Origin: a bacterium
Lineage (GTDB): Bacteria > Hydrothermota > 32-111
DNA length: 52,328 bases
Assembly: GCA_050239825.1 (NCBI GenBank)
Contig: JBFXGO010000003.1
Location: 21,277 to 73,604, forward strand
Direction of reading: 5' to 3'
The translations under genes were made by a program, and so were the position numbers. Shown in pieces: positions 7,919 to 31,732 of this stretch (the first letter of the stretch is position 1; every line of letters begins with the position of its first letter). A model generated the notes under the pieces. It searched no databases and was not told where the DNA came from. It was given only the letters and a program-made list of their open reading frames with translations.

Positions 7919-8569
7919 ATGTCAATAGACGATAATACAAAACTTGAGGTTTTACACGATCACTACAAAGAAAGTTTTTTGCATATTCGCGAACGAGAAA
8001 AACAGCGCGACCGGCTGTTTATGTTTGTAATTGCTCTAATTGGTGCTTTATTTCTTGAAATACAATATTCCGATGTTTTTTCGAATATCTTGGGGAATAT
8101 TAAATTAGAATTCGTAGAGTTGGATATAAGCATAATGCCCATTTCAATCTTCCTAAGCGTAACTTGGACTTATCTATTTGTTATTGTATTAAAGTATTGT
8201 CAATCCTCGATTCTTATTGAAAGGCAATATGACTATCTGCATTGTTTGGAGGATCAAATATCCAAACTTTTTGACGACCAGAATATTTATTGTCGAGAAG
8301 GCAAAGCTTACCTTAATAAATATCCTCTTTTTTCTGATTTAGTTTGGATTTTTTATATACTTTTATTTCCAACTATAGTAATACTTTCGGTTGGGCTAAT
8401 TATTTATCTCGAAGGGTATAAAATTGAAGCACCATTATATCATTTAATTTATGATTCAATTTTAACAATAGGGATAAGCATATCATTTATATTGTATAGG
8501 TTTCATCCTTTAGTGAAGAATATACTATTGAAAATCAAAAATAAAATAGTGAAAAATCGAAATGTCTAA
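7919..8569 (+). CDS. Uncharacterised ~4-TM membrane protein, candidate TIR-linked effector
   Basis: Four hydrophobic segments separated by a charged loop; starts 2 bp after the TIR stop and overlaps the res start. Confidence 0.7.
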   Translation: MSIDDNTKLEVLHDHYKESFLHIREREKQRDRLFMFVIALIGALFLEIQYSDVFSNILGNIKLEFVELDISIMPISIFLSVTWTYLFVIVLKYCQSSILIERQYDYLHCLEDQISKLFDDQNIYCREGKAYLNKYPLFSDLVWIFYILLFPTIVILSVGLIIYLEGYKIEAPLYHLIYDSILTIGISISFILYRFHPLVKNILLKIKNKIVKNRNV

Positions 8570-8732
8570 ATTATATTTACAAGACATCGTAAAAGACATT
8601 TCTTTGGAAAACTTGCCGGCGAAGTGGCAAGGGTTTGATTTTGAGCAGTTTTCAAAAGACAAAACACTCTTTGACTTTCAGCAGGATGCGCTTAAAAATG
8701 CTTTGCGTGGACTATGGCTTTATTTCAAAGGA

Positions 8733-8774
8733 AACACCCCGTCCCTTCGGGACACCCCTCTACAAGATGGGAAT
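8733..8774 (+). repeat. In-frame double-hairpin element in res (NTPSLRDTPLQDGN)
   Basis: AACACCCCGTCCCTTCGGGACACCCCTCTACAAGATGGGAAT. Confidence 0.85.
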
Positions 8775-10308
8775 GAATTGAAGCAAAGCTTGTTTAATCA
8801 CTATAAATTAAATGGATTTGAAGAAAACTTTGACTACGATTTGAAAAAGAAACAAGACAGCAAAACCGCAAAATATCTTTTAGAATACGACAAAGATTAT
8901 CCAGTGGAAGATAATAAGATTTCTTTTGCACATTTTATCAATCGAATGAGTTTTTGGATGGCAACTGGTTCCGGTAAAACGCTGATTATTGTTAAATTGA
9001 TTGAGCTTTTAGGACTGCTTATTTCAAAAGGTGAAATTCCCCCAAACGATATTCTATTTTTAGCACACAAGCACACAGAGATGACCTTTTGGACCAATTC
9101 AAAAATCATGTTGATGAATTTAACAGCTTTAATTTTGACACAAAGATAAATCTCAGAAATTTGAGGGATTATGAGAGCGTAAAGCGCGAAAATGCCCTGC
9201 CATTTGCCAAAAACGAGATTACTGTTTTTTATTATCGTTCCGATTTGATTTCTGATGAGCAGAAAGAAAAAATCGTCAATTTCAGAAATTACGATAATAG
9301 TGGCAAGTGGTACATTCTTTTGGACGAAGCCCACAAAGGCGATAAAGAAGACAGCAAACGACAGATTTTATACTCCATACTATCAAGAAACGGATTTTTA
9401 TTTAATTTCTCTGCTACCTTTACCGACCCGAGGGACTTTGCGACCTGCGCCTTTAACTTCAATCTTTCAAGGTTCGTTGAAGAAGGATACGGCAAGCATA
9501 TTTATGTATCCTCTGCCGAAATTGGCGCCTTTCGCGGACGAGGCGATTTTTCTCCGATTGAAAAACAAAAAATCGTTTTAAAATCGCTTTTGCTTTTAAC
9601 TTACATCAACAAGTATTTTGAAAAAATCAGGAAAGTTAATAACGCTTTATATCACCACCCCCTGCTTCTAACGCTGGTTAATTCCGTAGATGTGGAAGAA
9701 TCTGATTTGGAGTTATTTTTTAGAGAGTTAGAAAAAGTAGCGAAGAACGAAATTAGGGCAGATTTGCTCAATAAAGCAAAACACGAACTTGTTCAAGAAT
9801 TTAGCGACTATCCATCATTTGAGTTTGAGGAGTTGGAATGTGTAGTAAATGCCGATTTAATTTCAAAGTTAGATTACAAAGATATTTTGAAATATGTTTT
9901 GAATGCCAAAACTTCGGGCAACATTGAAGTTCTAAAAATCCCCGGCAATAGGAATGAATTGATTTTTAGGTTAATGACGGCTGATAAACCGTTTGCGTTA
10001 ATCAAAATCGGCGATATTTCCGGCTGGCTGAAAGATAAACTTGAGGGATATGAAATAAACGAAAGTTTTGAAAACGAAAGTTATTTCAGACGAATAAATC
10101 ACGATGATTCCGACATAAATATTTTAATGGGTTCACGCTCTTTTTATGAGGGCTGGGATTCTAACAGGCCAAACATACTTTTGTTTGTAAATATTGGAGT
10201 TGGAAGCGACGCCAAAAAATTCGTTCTGCAATCGGTCGGCAGAGGCGTAAGAATAGAGCCAAAGAAACACCAAAGAAAGCGGCTTCAAAATTTGTTCAAC
10301 GCAGTAAA

Positions 10309-25085: not shown

Positions 25086-25161
25086 GCGGGAATAGCTCAG
25101 TTGGTAGAGCGTTACCTTGCCAAGGTAAGTGTCGCGGGTTCGAGTCCCGTTTCCCGCTCCA
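25086..25161 (+). tRNA. tRNA-Gly(GCC)
   Basis: GCGGGAA/TTCCCGC acceptor, TTACC-TTGCCAA-GGTAA anticodon arm, CCA encoded. Confidence 0.97.
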
Positions 25162-25173
25162 TTTTCTTTTTAT

Positions 25174-25245
25174 GGCGGCATAGCCAAGTGGTAAGGCGAC
25201 GGTCTGCAAAATCGTTATGCTCCAGTTCAAATCTGGATGCCGCCT
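25174..25245 (+). tRNA. tRNA-Cys(GCA)
   Basis: GGCGGCA/TGCCGCC acceptor, loop CTGCAAA, T-arm TCCAGTTCAAATCTGGA. Confidence 0.95.
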
Positions 25246-25250
25246 TGTTA

Positions 25251-25339
25251 GCCGGAGTGATGGAATTGGTAGACGTAGCGGACTTAAAATCCGCTGGGAT
25301 GTAAGTCCCGTGCCGGTTCGATTCCGGCCTCCGGCACCA
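25251..25339 (+). tRNA. tRNA-Leu(TAA)
   Basis: GCCGGAG/CTCCGGC acceptor, GCGGA-CTTAAAA-TCCGC anticodon arm, long variable arm, CCA encoded. Confidence 0.97.
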
Positions 25340-25483
25340 AATTACTGCGAGCAATTTCTCCATAAAATAAATATGATCACTTTTCCTAATGTCTTTCATA
25401 AGGTGCAGAGACCGTCGAAGCATTTTGAAGTGCATACAATGTACATTTTAAATTATGTTGTGAAGTTTATTCCCGACACCTAT

Positions 25484-25752
25484 TAATGGCCTCTTGAAAT
25501 AGGACACGTTTTAGTGGTAGAATGTGTTAAAAAAGGAGGCAGAAACGGACTACAAGAGACACAAATCAGGATTCAAGGTGAGAGTGGCGCTGTAGGCAAT
25601 AAGTGAGGTTGATATTAAAAAATATAAAAGAGGGTCTAAATCATAAAAATACAAAACTCCATCTGAAGTTTATGGAGGTATCACGAATGTTCAAACAGCT
25701 TAACAATAAACACAATTTATCAAAATCTTGTGTCTTGACAAGAGAGCCATTG
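25484..25752 (+). mobile_element. Internally deleted IS3-family remnant
   Basis: Imperfect terminal IRs TAATGGCCTCTTGAAATAGGACAC / GTGTCTTGACAAGAGAGCCATTG; residual peptides KRHKSGFKVRVAL*AI (OrfA-like) and YKTPSEVY (OrfB C-terminus-like). Confidence 0.6.
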
Positions 25753-25833
25753 TCTAGTTATAATATTAAATATTAAAGAACGTTACTCTAATTATGCTAT
25801 TAAAAATTGGAGATAATGTTAAGAGTAAAAAAT

Positions 25834-26007
25834 ATGATTGGCGATAATGTAAAGAAATTTAGAAAGAAGAAAGGCCTTATACAAGATGGTCTTGCAAGAA
25901 AAGCCGATATTCCTTATACTATTTTAATAAAGTTAGAATCCAATGTTGTTAAAAAACCTTCTGTTCAGACCGTTGCAAAGATAGCAAAAGGATGCTTATA
26001 CATGTGA
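25834..26007 (+). pseudogene. 3'-truncated XRE HTH regulator, paralog of 486-698
   Basis: ARKADIPYTILIKLESNVVKKPSVQTVAKIAKG versus ARKADIPYTTLTKIETGVIKKPSVFVVAKIAKG; runs directly into integrase sequence. Confidence 0.75.
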
Positions 26008-26393
26008 AAGATGCAAAAGGGAGAAAGGATAGATACACATTGCTTTCGGAGAAGGCATTAGAAATTCAAATAAAATACTGGAGAAAATATAAGCCTGAAA
26101 AATGGCTATTCGGTGGAGCAAAAGAAAGCGGATACCTTTCAACAAGGACAGTTCAAGCGATATTTGAACAGGCAAAAGAAAAGGCGGGAATCAAGAAAGA
26201 CATATCGGTGCATGGACTAAGACATAGTTTTGCAACACATCTTTTAGAAGGCGGCACGGACCTTAGATATATTCAAGAACTGCTTGGTCATACAAGTTCT
26301 AAGATTACAGAAATATATACGCATGTAAGCCAGAAGTCATTGGGAAAGATAAAGAGTCCATTAGACACTTTAAATTTGAAGAAAGGAGGTTGA
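25980..26393 (+). pseudogene. C-terminal fragment of an integron-integrase-related tyrosine recombinase
   Basis: DSKRMLIHVKDAKGRKDR, HGLRHSFATHLLE, IQELLGH, EIYTHV and C-terminal KSPLD; N-terminal half including the first catalytic Arg is missing. Confidence 0.85.
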
Positions 26394-26484
26394 AGCTGAC
26401 AATATTTGTTAATAAAGAGGGGAAATCTGGGTTTTCGCCAATAGTAAAAATATCCGCATTGCGTCTACACCACCAAATGAGGGA

Positions 26485-26533
26485 TATATACGCAGTAATT
26501 GCGGATACAAACGAGTTATACGCCATTTGGTTT
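26485..26533 (+). other. attI-like recombination site
   Basis: CGCAGTAATTGCG palindrome followed by AAACGAG|TTATACGCC (GTT at 26515), downstream of the recombinase, with no upstream inverse core. Confidence 0.5.
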
Positions 26534-26555
26534 ATACACCTAAGGGAGGATAAAA

Positions 26556-27428
26556 ATGAATATCCTTAGCAGACTAATACGCAAACTTTATGTAGCTACA
26601 ATAGGGAAATTAATAACAAGGAGAGAAAAATCACGCCTTCAAAGTGAAGATGATGAGGTTCTAAAGTCGCTTGCAAATGTCCTCGATGCTGTCATGCAAA
26701 ATAGGTATTCCTATGAAGAAAAAGATTGGATTGAGAAAATTGAAACGCTAAGAAATAACCTAAACACATCCTCCATTAGGATATCAATAACAGATTATGG
26801 AGCAGGATCCCAGGATCTCAACTTGACAGCAGAGGAGATGTCTCAAGGGAGAGTTGTGGTCAGAACTATTGGAGAAGTTTGTCAAAGTGCCTCGAAACCA
26901 TATAAATGGGATTTTCTGTTGTTCAAGTTGGTAAGAGTGTTCCGTCCTTCAGTTTGTCTAGAGTTGGGAACTGCTTTAGGCATTTCAGCTGCATACCAAG
27001 CAGCAGCTTGTGAACTGAACCGCCATGGGAGAATCGTGACCTTAGACGGTGCGGAATCCCTAGTTTCATTAGCTAGGGAAAATTTTGAAAGGCTTGGTAT
27101 TGAAAGGGGCGATGTAGTTCTTGGTCGATTTCAGGATACATTACAAGACGTTTTAGATGAAAATGCACCCATTGATTTTGTTTTCATTGATGGACATCAT
27201 GATGAAAATGCGACTTTGACCTATTTTAGACAGATATTGCCGCACTTGTCAGATGGTGCGATTCTCATCTTTGACGATATCTCTTGGTCCCGTGGAATGG
27301 AAAGGGCTTGGAATACCATACAAAAGGATAGAAATTTAAAAGTCTCAGTAGATTTGTTCAGCGTTGGTGTCTGTTTTTTTACAAAGTCAACGGTAGAAAA
27401 AAAGAAGTATTTCAAGATAGCAATCTAA
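26556..27428 (+). CDS. Class I SAM-dependent methyltransferase (cassette gene)
   Basis: LELGTALGIS, DFVFIDGHH, IFDDISWS; RBS GGAGGA; flanked by complementary core sites. Confidence 0.85.
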   Translation: MNILSRLIRKLYVATIGKLITRREKSRLQSEDDEVLKSLANVLDAVMQNRYSYEEKDWIEKIETLRNNLNTSSIRISITDYGAGSQDLNLTAEEMSQGRVVVRTIGEVCQSASKPYKWDFLLFKLVRVFRPSVCLELGTALGISAAYQAAACELNRHGRIVTLDGAESLVSLARENFERLGIERGDVVLGRFQDTLQDVLDENAPIDFVFIDGHHDENATLTYFRQILPHLSDGAILIFDDISWSRGMERAWNTIQKDRNLKVSVDLFSVGVCFFTKSTVEKKKYFKIAI

Positions 27429-27434
27429 GAAATG

Positions 27435-27530
27435 ACCAAACGGCGTATAACAGACGCATATCTGGCTACGGGCTAACGCCCTTCGCCCAAATTGCCTTTG
27501 GCAACTTCTTTTATTCGCAAAACGTTATAT
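27435..27530 (+). other. attC-like cassette recombination site
   Basis: ACCAAACGGCGTATAAC is complementary to the cassette start GTTATACGCCATTTGGT at 16/17 positions; internal hairpins; ends AAAACG|TTATATG (GTT at 27524). Confidence 0.7.
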
Positions 27531-27574
27531 GAAATTGGGAGCAAAGAATTTAAAGGACAAAGCCTAATAAAAAT

Positions 27575-27838
27575 GTGGATATTATGATAATAACAATACA
27601 AATCCTAATTTACCTTTGCATAGGACTTTTCGCAGGTTTTATGAGCGGTATGTTTGGAATTGACGGAGGAACTGTAAGAATACCTTTGCTTAATCTTGCA
27701 GGTTTGCCTTTATTAAGTGCCTTCGGAATTAATTTTTTTGTTATCCCTTTTTCATCATTAGTAGGTGCAATGAGTCAGAGAAAGAATATCGCGAAAAAGG
27801 TAGTAACTTATGCGATTGGCGGAGGTAATATAATTTAG
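27575..27838 (+). pseudogene. TSUP (TauE/SafE) transporter N-terminal fragment; second cassette, truncated
   Basis: GLFAGFMSGMFGIDGG...IP motif; ends at IS256-like sequence. Confidence 0.7.
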
Positions 27839-27839
27839 C

Positions 27840-28260
27840 AATGATTTTAGGGTAACCGTTTTTCCGTAAACATCTTTTCTGCCGTTGAAGTCCATACCAA
27901 TTGCCGTAAAAGTGCTTGTATTTTTTACTTCTCCGTCATATCCCACAGGTGATTCATAAGCGTCTATATAGAGTGCTATAAGATCGTGGGGTATCGGCCG
28001 CTTATTCTATATATCTATCCGCTCATCAATGTCTCTCTTGTATCTATCCGGCAAAACCTGCGAACGAAACTCTCCTGTCCGAGTTCTCGGAGATGACAAT
28101 GAAAGTTTTCCAAGAGGTGTTCCAAGTCCCCGCTCAATATACCCATTAGCATAATCATCATTACTTGACAGATATATCTCTCGCTCACTCTTCATTATTC
28201 GGTTCAATATCTCCTCCAATAACAACCGCAAAGAACTGTTGCTTAATTCATTAATGTCAG
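27840..28260 (-). mobile_element. IS256-family transposase remnant
   Basis: RLLLEEILNRIMKSEREIYL...YANGYIERGLGTPLGKLSLSSPRTRTGEF and DGEVKNTSTFTAIGMDFNGRKDVYG, in broken frames. Confidence 0.75.
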
Positions 28261-28349
28261 CTATTTGTCAGGGATGGGAGAAAGCCGTGAGCCGATAGTA
28301 AAAACCCTTGAGCCGTGCGCCGTGAGCCTTGAGCTTGGGGAAAGTACTT

Positions 28350-28566
28350 GTACTGTCCCCACAATCAAGAACCAATACATAATATGGAATACAAATACAG
28401 AAGCAACATTAACAGTTTACGACATATCAGGCAGAGAGGTAATCAGAGAGGAATCAGAGACAATAGGCGAACACAAAACAGACATCAGAGCATTAAAGAA
28501 TGTGATATACTTTATAAAACTCAGTACAATCAATCAATCATAGAAAAAATGGTTAGGATAAAATAG
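28350..28566 (+). pseudogene. Orphan T9SS-like C-terminal sorting domain fragment
   Basis: TLTVYDISGREV...VIYFIKL, then after a frameshift in an (AATC)n run EKMVRIK*; similar to the tail of 45414-49496. Confidence 0.6.
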
Positions 28567-28642
28567 CATTGAGCATCCGATGATTTGAATGGTTTAAGCT
28601 TTTCCTCTTGATTATATCCATCAATGCAATATAATAATCCTA

Positions 28643-29698: not shown

Positions 29699-31732
29699 AT
29701 GAACAAATTCCCAGTACTCTTATTCATACTGCTGATGTCACTTATTATATTTCCTTATGATGAAGGAATGTTTGACTCCTCGACTGAGATTGATTCATTC
29801 ATCATGGATAAGAATATAAAGGATGCAGTTAGTGTAAAAGATTTTATTTCAGAGGCGAGATTTTTCAATACTTTTATGGAGAATCTTAATGAATCATACT
29901 CTCTCTATGCATCTGACGCTCCTAAAAGTAAAATCAGATCTTTATACGAGAGTGGGAACTTTGAAGAAGCAGTTCGTTGCATTTCTGAAAACTATGTCGA
30001 ATCATTCATCAAATCTCTTGCATTTGCAAAACTTGGTCTATGGCAGGAAGCAATAGCAGAACTTGATAAAACAAGCAGATTAAAGGTTGTTGAGGTGGAT
30101 TCAATCTGCTCAATAGTAAGGGCGGCTTGTTACTTCGGTTTAAAAGAATATGACTCTGCTTTTTTATCAGTCAAGGATTATAACGATGATTATTCATCTC
30201 TAATAAAAGCGCTGATTTATAAATCAAAACATCTTGATGACTCTTTGATAAAGACTCTTTTGTCGGTTGAGAGCGAGAGAATAGAACCGGAAAGGTCATA
30301 TCTTCTTTTAAATGCATACTACAGGAAAAAAGATTATTCAAACACTATAGCTATGATTGAGAGATTTGAAATTAAATTTCCTTATTTCACCGAAATCATA
30401 GAGTTAAAATACATTAAGGGTCAGATACTATACAAAAGAGGATACTTCAAGCGGTCTATAATGGCTATGCAGGATGTGATTCTTGGAAGCGATTCAAACA
30501 GCACAATAGTGGGAAATGCCTATTACATTATAGGCAAAAATTATTTCATGCTCGGGGATTATGACAAGATGGAGGAGTATCTCTATTTCGTCAAACTTGA
30601 CGCTTCCCGGTCGGATTTCAAGAAGAATGCGGAATTTCTCGACGGCAAAGGATTCTTTCTTAAGAAAGATTACAGGAAAGCGGCTGAGAAGCTGACACTC
30701 TTCATAGAAAAATATCCTGAGGACGAACTGACTCAATATGCCCTTCAGCTTTTATCTCAGGCTCACTTCTATCTCAAGAATTACAAAAAATCATCAGAGT
30801 TTATGGATCGTCTTAAATCAGCATCTTTTTTTGCAGACAAGCTGGTGATGATGAAATATTTTATTGATTACAAAAACAAGATATATCCCGACAGTATTTC
30901 CGCATACCTTTCTTTCTTGTCTAAAGAGATACAGAATCCTATGAGGAGAGAAGCTTATGAACTGATAATAAAAGAGTCATCCTCCGATTCTCTCAAAATA
31001 TGGTCATTTGAAAATCTCAACAGAGAGTTTCCGGAAAGCGAGAACCTTTATGTTTATGCTGTTTCATTGTGTCCTCTTATTATTGATAAATGCTCATCCG
31101 AGCATATAATGAAATTGCTGGACAATTTGCGAAAATACAGAGAGGAGAAATTTGAAGAAGTAATGCTTCTTTATTTAAGAGAATTATACGGGAATCACTG
31201 TTATTCATTTATTGTTGAGATCTATTCAAAATATTCCAGAGACATCAAGAACGGAAAAAAGGAAGCATCCTATCTTACAGCTCTCTCCCTAAATGAAATG
31301 AAAAATACTGACGGGGCTCTTTTCATGCTTGAAGCTCTCTCAACCGGTGAAGGGGAGTATGCAGACAGTTCGGCTTTAATGAGAGCGAGGATCTATTATG
31401 AAATTCATGATGCTTCTTTCCTGAAAGATTACATTGAACAAATTAAAGAAACAAAGAATCCGTTTGTAGAGGGGGAGCTTTACAGAATATACGGACGGAA
31501 GCTTTTTGTTCAAAAGAGGTACAGTGAAGCCAGAGATGCATTTCTGATGTCCGCTGAATTATTCAAGGACAACAGAAATATGGCGGCTCTTGCGCTTCTT
31601 GAATGTTCCGATGCATCCAGAGAGCTGGGAGAATTGAATGAGTCCGTAATATTCGCCGAAAAAGCCCTGCTTCTGGCAACTGACATAGAGATTCAGAATA
31701 AAATAAAACTGCACATGGAAAACTTAAAATGA
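29699..31732 (+). CDS. Exported tetratricopeptide-repeat protein
   Basis: Signal-like N-terminus; TPR-like helices (AYYIIGKNYF, KAAEKLTLFIEKYP). Confidence 0.65.
   Translation: MNKFPVLLFILLMSLIIFPYDEGMFDSSTEIDSFIMDKNIKDAVSVKDFISEARFFNTFMENLNESYSLYASDAPKSKIRSLYESGNFEEAVRCISENYVESFIKSLAFAKLGLWQEAIAELDKTSRLKVVEVDSICSIVRAACYFGLKEYDSAFLSVKDYNDDYSSLIKALIYKSKHLDDSLIKTLLSVESERIEPERSYLLLNAYYRKKDYSNTIAMIERFEIKFPYFTEIIELKYIKGQILYKRGYFKRSIMAMQDVILGSDSNSTIVGNAYYIIGKNYFMLGDYDKMEEYLYFVKLDASRSDFKKNAEFLDGKGFFLKKDYRKAAEKLTLFIEKYPEDELTQYALQLLSQAHFYLKNYKKSSEFMDRLKSASFFADKLVMMKYFIDYKNKIYPDSISAYLSFLSKEIQNPMRREAYELIIKESSSDSLKIWSFENLNREFPESENLYVYAVSLCPLIIDKCSSEHIMKLLDNLRKYREEKFEEVMLLYLRELYGNHCYSFIVEIYSKYSRDIKNGKKEASYLTALSLNEMKNTDGALFMLEALSTGEGEYADSSALMRARIYYEIHDASFLKDYIEQIKETKNPFVEGELYRIYGRKLFVQKRYSEARDAFLMSAELFKDNRNMAALALLECSDASRELGELNESVIFAEKALLLATDIEIQNKIKLHMENLK

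Follow-up and report, generated by a model that had tools for sequence, protein, structure and literature searches.

A probable inactivated remnant of an integron-like gene-capture platform with an insertion-less recombinase in a Hydrothermota genome

The stretch of DNA analysed here (the window; 52,328 nucleotides of contig JBFXGO010000003.1, assembly GCA_050239825.1, from a bacterium of the Hydrothermota) contains, at positions 25807-27838, what is probably the inactivated remnant of an integron-like gene-capture platform, with a tyrosine recombinase that lacks the insertion specific to the integron integrase IntI. In the prevailing view, it is through this insertion that a tyrosine recombinase can work on folded single-stranded attC sites. 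Judging from sequence comparison, an intact platform of this kind would consist of a helix-turn-helix (HTH) regulator gene, a tyrosine recombinase gene, an attI site just past its stop codon, and co-oriented single-gene cassettes, each of them closing with an attC of about 90 nt that would fold as single-stranded DNA. Circular cassettes would be inserted at the G↓TT of attI (the arrow marks the crossover), and the insertion-less enzyme, not a canonical IntI, would catalyse the exchange between attI and attC and between two attC sites. Most intact members of the recombinase family would carry a HARP-like N-terminal domain in place of the I2 insertion. The argument is carried by a pairing rule followed by the cassettes, by the conserved structure of the attC sites, and by the recurring order of recombinase, attI and array.

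Cassettes, attC sites and the attI-like site

The first-pass annotation of this locus had pointed to near-perfect arms flanking a methyltransferase gene, followed by a hairpin-rich segment with a new G↓TTATATG end. Both were found in place. The arms, GTTATACGCCATTTGGT at 26515-26531 and ACCAAACGGCGTATAAC at 27435-27451, can pair in 16 of 17 positions. They enclose the Methyltransf_24 open reading frame (ORF) and are the sole match at two or fewer mismatches in the window, where 0.01 is expected by chance (100 shuffles). The start of cassette 1, TTATACGCCATTTGGT, pairs with the bases at the 5' side of its own attC. The attC itself has two hairpins and is composed of R'' GTATAAC (27445-27451), an eroded L stem, hairpin 1 (27470-27481), the conserved CTTCGCCCAAAT (27481-27492), hairpin 2 (27492-27504) and R' GTTATAT (27524-27530).

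The conserved core of this element was scanned over metagenome contigs, which returned at least 118 stretches, and 80 loci were fetched. A covariance model (R1) matched at the pattern site in 69 of them; the remaining 11 are chance matches in GC-rich coding DNA. Altogether, 141 model matches at E ≤ 0.01 were obtained in these loci, often as two to five co-oriented copies 0.5-1.5 kb apart. The strict, exact core pattern matched none of 60 related genomes. Next, 56 copies were aligned, namely those of the window, of contig C46 of the same genome and of a Dehalococcoidia locus (L013), together with 53 of the 57 distinct filtered copies; the long outliers L110, L111, L130 and L144 were excluded. 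The first half of the consensus comprises R'' (e.g. GCCTAAC, GTATAAC or AGATAAC), a single A, an L'' of ~11 nt, GGCTwCG and a variable hairpin, and the second half CTTCGCCCAAAT, a variable hairpin 2, ACTT, L', a GGAAC-like spacer and R' (e.g. GTTAGGC or GTTATAC). In the resulting 30-pair structure 87.8% of the cells are paired, as compared to 20-42% when the partners are slid, and compensatory changes occur in 188 cells; none of 500 shuffles attained the observed values. When folded as a single strand, a well-preserved copy reaches -26.3 kcal/mol for the top and -30.1 kcal/mol for the bottom strand (z -5.9 and -6.7), both strands taking exactly the 30-pair shape, which combines R and L stems with a three-way junction. 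In most copies the R and L stems are separated by an asymmetric loop of 1 versus 4-5 nt that is GGAAC-like; it might play the part that extrahelical bases have in integrons, where they mark the recombined (bottom) strand. The hallmarks of an attC, i.e. imperfect inverted repeats, AAC...GTT ends and single-strand folding, are therefore present in the family, with the window copy folding its inner hairpins only.

If circular units are inserted at G↓TT, the partner sequence that an attC lacks should stand at the start of the same cassette. This was examined in 163 model matches, 152 of them with recognisable AAC and GTT ends, among which 70 consecutive attC pairs with a spacing of up to 3.5 kb were used. 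For each, the nine bases past GTT at the cassette start were compared with the bases preceding the AAC of its own attC. On average 5.97 of 9 positions were complementary in the 70 cassettes, as compared to 4.17 when the R' of that same site was taken instead and 3.99 in randomly drawn pairs. The cassette start paired better in 57 of the 70 cassettes, worse in 7 and equally in 6. Such a rule is what the recombination of circular cassettes at G↓TT would leave behind. The pattern proposed at first sight for the window, a cassette whose circular form restores a paired attC, is one case of the rule seen in these 70 pairs from other loci.

Traces of mobility were looked for as well. A marine-metagenome contig matches window positions 27521-27661 with one difference (~99% identity) and is unlike the window upstream, with the break at R'. 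The second cassette, which encodes a TauE/SafE-family membrane protein, therefore has another left neighbour there, and this is consistent with movement. No joint of an excised cassette was seen in the contigs of sequencing runs, a search that covered contigs only and in which positions 26554-27465 were uncovered in the best-matching run, which may be the source sample.

The attI-like site contains imperfect palindromes (~26453-26466 and ~26486-26508) around a CCACCAAAT spacer, followed by AAACGAG↓TTAT. On C46, the last 50 codons of the same recombinase are followed by a matching non-coding stretch. Window positions 26239-26519 and C46 positions 30960-31240 are 96% identical, and the similarity ends abruptly after GAGTTAT. 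The first cassette on C46 carries an Mrr-type restriction endonuclease gene, then an attC of the window type (78 bits, model R1). As read from the sequence, the start of this cassette and the bases on the 5' side of its own attC can pair in 15 of 19 positions. The same platform with two different first cassettes is the behaviour expected of an attI. These two are the only copies of the attC element in the genome, which is 99% complete. A second cassette-like gene on C46 (L002 1607-2779; 390 aa) lies between the Mrr-type cassette and a transposase-type HTH ORF at the contig end; for this gene no Pfam match and no attC on its 3' side were found.

The recombinase family and its arrays

By tblastn, what is left of the recombinase aligns at 85% identity with residues 234-370 of P0002, a relative that is intact and 372 aa long. 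With P0002 as query, no other gene piece that would account for the first 233 codons was found anywhere in the window, in any frame. Box II (HGLRH) and the region of the catalytic tyrosine are kept, and the match to Pfam PF00589 covers positions 56-170 of 172. An IntI-like KSPLD end and a missing IntI-specific insertion had been claimed in the first-pass annotation, and the profile comparisons bear out both. The ORF (25992-26393) ends in GKIKSPLDTL, and the integron-integrase model TIGR02249 aligns to its final position, only over fragment residues 48-127. The XerA and XerD models show an unbroken alignment over fragment residues 3-118; the score on the XerA model NF040815 is 110.6 bits, below the cut-off of 220.

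Relatives of the fragment number in the thousands, all 8000 candidates scored having E ≤ 0.001; among the 120 matches listed, identity is 52-86% and mostly above 70%. Intact members come from many phyla and bear the name 'site-specific tyrosine recombinase/integron integrase'. All six intact relatives analysed carry PF13495 and PF00589 and exceed the cut-off of NF040815 (238-248 bits versus 220). On TIGR02249, the intact relatives align in two pieces and score 214-236 bits, under the cut-off of 265. The best match among solved structures is VchIntIA (PDB 2a3v; 157 bits), again in two stretches, with 30 query residues opposite 72 VchIntIA residues, i.e. 42 fewer in that region, and two XerA structures align to the family without a break. 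The commonest plasmid match is IntI1, at 34% identity (271 query versus 314 IntI1 residues). The family is therefore IntI-like at both ends and the insertion is absent. Among the relatives of the integron integrases this recombinase is the nearest kind, minus the I2 insertion.

Many family members start with a conserved domain of 50-70 residues (consensus ...V.F.Y....V.K.K.I.G..W.P..K.W..P...). A strict pattern for this domain was found in 29 of 81 reading frames, and additional variants were recognised by eye. The profile of those 29 matched the HARP domain of SMARCAL1 (PDB 4o66) with an E of 1.6e-4. On the Pfam HARP model (PF07443, cut-off 25), the relative P0077 scored 24.9 bits and P0002 12.1 bits. 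Foldseek, started from an AlphaFold model of the domain (predicted local distance difference test 80.8), placed 4o66 at rank 1 and gave zero matches at E ≤ 0.001. The HARP reading thus draws mainly on the sequence profile. Such a domain, which is missing from the window remnant, may help the enzyme to recognise folded or branched DNA.

Linkage was approached from the recombinase side by fetching 80 loci with the fragment alone from contigs of one genome per species. Hosts include Nitrospirota, Desulfobacterota, Bacillota (Paenibacillus, Desulfitobacterium, Clostridium, Alkaliphilus), Bacteroidota, Ignavibacteriota, Atribacterota, Cloacimonadota, Methanoperedens and others. In most of these loci, two imperfect palindromes come after the stop codon, then a CCCAAAT-like spacer and AAAC(G/A)AGTTA; closely related loci part ways after this motif, and several contigs terminate at or just past it. 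An attI-like site that ends in GTTA/GTTR, with G↓TT insertion, thus adjoins the integrase gene, 3' of the gene rather than 5'. Regarding the arrays, 24 of the 32 attC matches lie downstream on the recombinase strand, in 15 loci, despite 591 kb having been searched upstream and 336 kb downstream; the others are six downstream on the opposite strand (all in L013) and two upstream (in L068). The co-oriented downstream array that had been noted in the window is hence the prevailing arrangement, and the full-length homologs, whose inspection had been proposed beforehand, lack the insertion and have downstream arrays. In L068, attC matches (8532-9102 and 11609) stand on either side of a truncated recombinase gene with an internal stop, as if the gene lay within the array.

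For 28 further loci, whose attC types R1 does not recognise, the DNA 150-4000 bp downstream was searched for a 12-mer that ends in AAC and could pair with the junction sequence (R'' test). Positive results were obtained in 24 of the 28, whereas shuffled targets averaged 6.6 and never exceeded 14 (200 trials), and the matches precede stem-loop elements with GGAAC-GTTA-like ends. The family 3' end also lies upstream of co-oriented attCs in the metagenome loci L103, L109 and L144. In the case of a complete plasmid from a cultured Chryseobacterium, an intact member is followed by five co-oriented small genes, with pairing at three junctions (by eye). At the end of the array of this plasmid (NZ_CP041688.1, L213 11248-14990) are genes for an IS110 transposase and for the maturase of a group II intron, a kind of element known for targeting attC sites. 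In an Atribacterota locus (L017), a peptide stretch 77% identical to the window HTH is encoded immediately upstream of the recombinase gene, and the HTH gene seems to be part of the platform.

No TIGR02249 match over the cut-off was present in the window genome, nor in any of five genomes with both recombinase and array, one of them a complete chromosome. All strong TIGR02249 matches in these five skip model positions ~180-235, except for a 53-aa open frame of the L013 genome, which matches the IntI-specific model positions 200-252.

Decay, surroundings and competing explanations

The features of the locus and its surroundings are collected in Table 1.

Table 1. Features in and around the locus (window positions)
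Feature	Positions	Strand	Basis or details
tRNA-Gly(GCC), tRNA-Cys(GCA), tRNA-Leu(TAA) cluster, left island border	25086..25339	+	ARAGORN
3.3-kb island, decayed mobile DNA	25343..28600	no strand	comparison with same-genus genomes G002 and G001
Repeat A, multi-copy in the window genome (G000)	25484..25760	+	at least 9 other copies, 89-95% identity
HTH_3 (XRE-type) regulator gene, 3' end lost	25807..25979	+	Pfam PF01381, E 5.8e-8
Tyrosine recombinase 3' remnant, last 137 codons	25980..26393	+	tblastn with P0002; Pfam, NCBIfam
attI-like site	26394..26515	+	122 bp non-coding; crossover at G26515
Putative cassette 1, 1009 bp: S-adenosylmethionine-dependent methyltransferase gene and own attC	26516..27524	+	pairing; G↓TT rule
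Methyltransferase ORF, 290 aa, Methyltransf_24, O-methyltransferase-like	26556..27428	+	PF13578 E 1.1e-19; PF01596 E 1.7e-9
attC, 91 nt	27441..27531	+	covariance model R1, 67.9 bits, E 6e-17
Putative cassette 2, truncated	27525..27838	+	TauE/SafE-family membrane protein, first 87 codons (ORF 27575-27838)
IS256-family (Transposase_mut) remnant interrupting cassette 2	27758..28231	-	Pfam PF00872
Repeat B, multi-copy, right part of island	28313..28567	+	copies of 85-90% identity on at least 6 contigs of G000

The locus had been taken for a decayed one from the start, and the 5'-truncated recombinase, the second cassette cut by an insertion sequence remnant and the poorly folding attC agree with this. 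A deletion would have fused the HTH gene to recombinase codon 234; in the DNA, the HTH_3 remnant is joined in frame to out-of-frame recombinase DNA, with a stop at 26007. An IS256 element would have cut cassette 2, of which the ORF matches PF01925 over profile positions 2-72 of 237, and would have removed the rest of the array, and the window attC would have lost most of its L stem. The sole other platform copy in the genome, on C46, is truncated at a different point. As a whole, the window is a decayed, rather poor specimen of the system, and the methyltransferase cassette is now a fixed passenger.

The island starts 3 bp past the tRNA-Leu gene. It is absent from contig C137 of the same-genus genome G002, where the similarity to the window reaches ~25342 and restarts at ~28601 with the flanks 43 bp apart, and genome G001 has ~3.9 kb of unlike DNA at its position. 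Repeats A and B flank the remnant, and several of their copies lie near IS256 fragments. A perfect, sigma-70-like TTGACA-18-TATAAT site (25735-25764; promoter scan 12/12) is directed at the HTH gene; it overlaps the 3' end of repeat A and extends 4 bp beyond it. A paralog of the HTH_3 gene (59% identity) lies at window positions ~504-665 (contig C7:21780-21941 of G000). Repeat B overlaps an ORF with a Por_Secre_tail match (type IX secretion system sorting tail). Throughout the genome, IS256-family transposase genes occur as short fragments only (more than 10 contigs, 37-75 residues, 71-99% identity), so that the family looks extinct or poorly assembled there.

Several observations weigh against the proposed platform. 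The case is built on comparative anatomy, from which recombination by the enzyme is inferred, and the window itself offers a single complete cassette with a single attC. The attCs of the window and of C46 both fold poorly (z -0.7 to -2.0), with inner hairpins only, and minimum free energy folding of the window and C46 sites alone did not recover the outer stems. R1 finds downstream arrays in just 15 of the 80 loci (45 of the 80 have at least 1.5 kb downstream), and the loci outside those 15 depend on the looser R'' test. Regarding the HARP-like domain, the assignment is weak by structure alone (Foldseek E 0.09), and about a dozen frames, counted by eye, are without such an N-terminal domain. 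A motif common to attI and the attC L box, which would have hinted that a single protein reads the two, found no support, as the own attI scored 6.0/8 and the attIs of other loci 6.18/8. In L139 (4884-5714), a different short recombinase is divergent from a three-attC array; it has ~270 aa, lacks both the insertion and a HARP-like domain, and is 44% identical to the family. Finally, the Dehalococcoidia locus L013 (7032-10361) has six attCs opposite to the nearby family recombinase, and the 53-aa IntI-specific frame lies in the same genome (G064, contig C66:4849-5007). A canonical IntI could therefore act in trans in places, and in that genome a single attC type may serve integrases of two kinds.

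This last point leads to the rival that we consider improbable, if the least so: ordinary integron cassettes moved by a canonical IntI, in an orphan array of the type called cluster of attC sites lacking integron-integrase (CALIN), with the insertion-less recombinase a mere neighbour, e.g. the integrase of another element. A CALIN is at least two attC sites close together without an integron integrase, and the window and C46 hold a single attC each. The attC boxes RYYYAAC...GTTRRRY (e.g. GCCTAAC/GTTAGGC) do resemble classical ones, the 53-aa frame occurs in an array-bearing genome, and IntI1 is able to recombine archaeal attCs, according to Ghaly 2022 (PMC9668308). This view is opposed by the contiguity of recombinase gene, conserved site after the stop codon and first junction at two loci here and at most of the 80 loci, in many phyla, by arrays that are predominantly downstream and co-oriented, and by the missing TIGR02249 matches over the cut-off, both in G000 and in all five array-bearing genomes.

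Still less probable, in our estimate, is that the recombinase is simply the integrase of the tRNA-Leu-adjacent island, the structured elements being terminators or RNA elements and the 17-mer pair incidental. The position of the island next to the tRNA gene and its absence from G002 would suit such an integrase, and hairpin 2 with its T run scores terminator-like. The circular-permutation rule and the similarity break exactly at GTTAT between window and C46 are left unexplained by it, the arrays elsewhere are not beside tRNA genes, the 17-mer pair is far above chance, and at the right border no direct repeats of the 3' end of tRNA-Leu were seen, nor any relatives that excise the whole island. 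A tRNA hot spot may well have been where the island entered, and this is compatible with the cassette reading. Hardly credible is a third possibility, in which the methyltransferase gene is carried by a non-autonomous transposon that resembles a miniature inverted-repeat transposable element and has the 17-bp arms as its terminal inverted repeats. An inverted repeat does bracket one gene in a genome rich in IS256 remnants and other repeats; against this, each arm occurs once in the 2.1-Mb genome, target-site duplications around the arms are missing, the right arm belongs to a 91-nt element of conserved structure present at more than 100 other places, and arm sequences vary between cassettes with pairing kept. 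Altogether, an inactivated integron-like platform remains the explanation that we favour.

Implications and comparison with known systems

We lean, with moderate confidence, towards a second and very widespread class of integron, defined by an IntI relative without I2, with a HARP-like domain and with attI past its own stop codon. It is also somewhat probable that in this class the I2 insertion was never present or was lost, that the HARP-like domain binds branched DNA, and that the class extends over Bacillota, Bacteroidota, WOR-3, Atribacterota, Nitrospirota and archaea. In the open-access literature searched, no description was found of insertion-less or HARP-fused integrases heading cassette arrays; apparently, this is a widespread, undescribed integron-type system. 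If enzymes of this kind do operate cassette arrays across many phyla, the structural requirement for attC use would have a second solution, and cassette-based gene exchange would reach much wider, including between bacteria and archaea. Censuses keyed to the IntI insertion would greatly under-count integron-type gene capture, and the system would occur in phyla that are considered to have few integrons or none. Cultured hosts exist, e.g. Paenibacillus species and Desulfitobacterium sp. Sab5. For the window genome the message is more modest: the methyltransferase gene and the TauE fragment are probably horizontally acquired cargo of a dead platform at a variable tRNA-Leu site.

The IntegronFinder profile for integron integrases is built on the IntI-specific domain (Ghaly 2022, PMC9668308), and the IntegronFinder 2.0 census reports one complete integron in all Firmicutes, integrons being almost absent there. 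In archaeal integrons, attI lies directly downstream of the integrase gene, and most arrays are without a called IntI (PMC9668308). The family resembles them in the position of attI and in its hosts, as Methanoperedens and Aenigmarchaeota are among the hosts of archaeal integrons and the family loci L008 and L040 come from these groups. Archaeal IntIs (n = 6) are said to have the IntI-specific domain, three of the six not spanning it fully (PMC9668308); unlike these IntIs, which were compared by description only, the family is clearly without it. Smyshlyaev 2021 (PMC8138268) terms the insertion 'not fully conserved' in an 'integron-like' subgroup of simple tyrosine recombinases, yet calls it essential to integron function. 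This subgroup may include relatives of the window recombinase, and the accessible text describes no cassette arrays for its insertion-less members. A lead to TIRYT/TIRtron elements was discarded, since these are reported to be HUH-type transposases of REP-like (repetitive extragenic palindromic) repeats, unrelated to the recombinase.

In the case of the XerA/XerC/XerD resolvases, the family shares the spacing from the beta-hairpin lysine to HxLRH, and its intact members pass NF040815. Unlike resolvases, its members occur in multiple copies, are frequently truncated, have spread horizontally and are linked to attI and cassette arrays. Two further full-length Xer-like genes are present in G000, and the genomic context argues against a role in dimer resolution. 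The N-terminal ~50 residues of the family are similar by profile to the HARP domain of SMARCAL1 (PDB 4o66), here fused to a recombinase and not to an annealing helicase. Overall, canonical integrons (IntI1 of class 1; VchIntIA of Vibrio cholerae) offer the closest comparison. Common to both are the tyrosine recombinase with attI beside its gene, the AAC/GTT boxes, R and L stems and G↓TT crossover of attC, and circularly permuted single-gene cassettes. Unlike canonical integrons, the family is without the I2 or additional domain (30 versus 72 residues), with a HARP-like N-terminal domain in many members, has its attI after the stop codon with a co-oriented array, and is associated with attCs that have a three-way junction and whose R and L stems are set apart by an asymmetric loop (1 x 4-5 nt).

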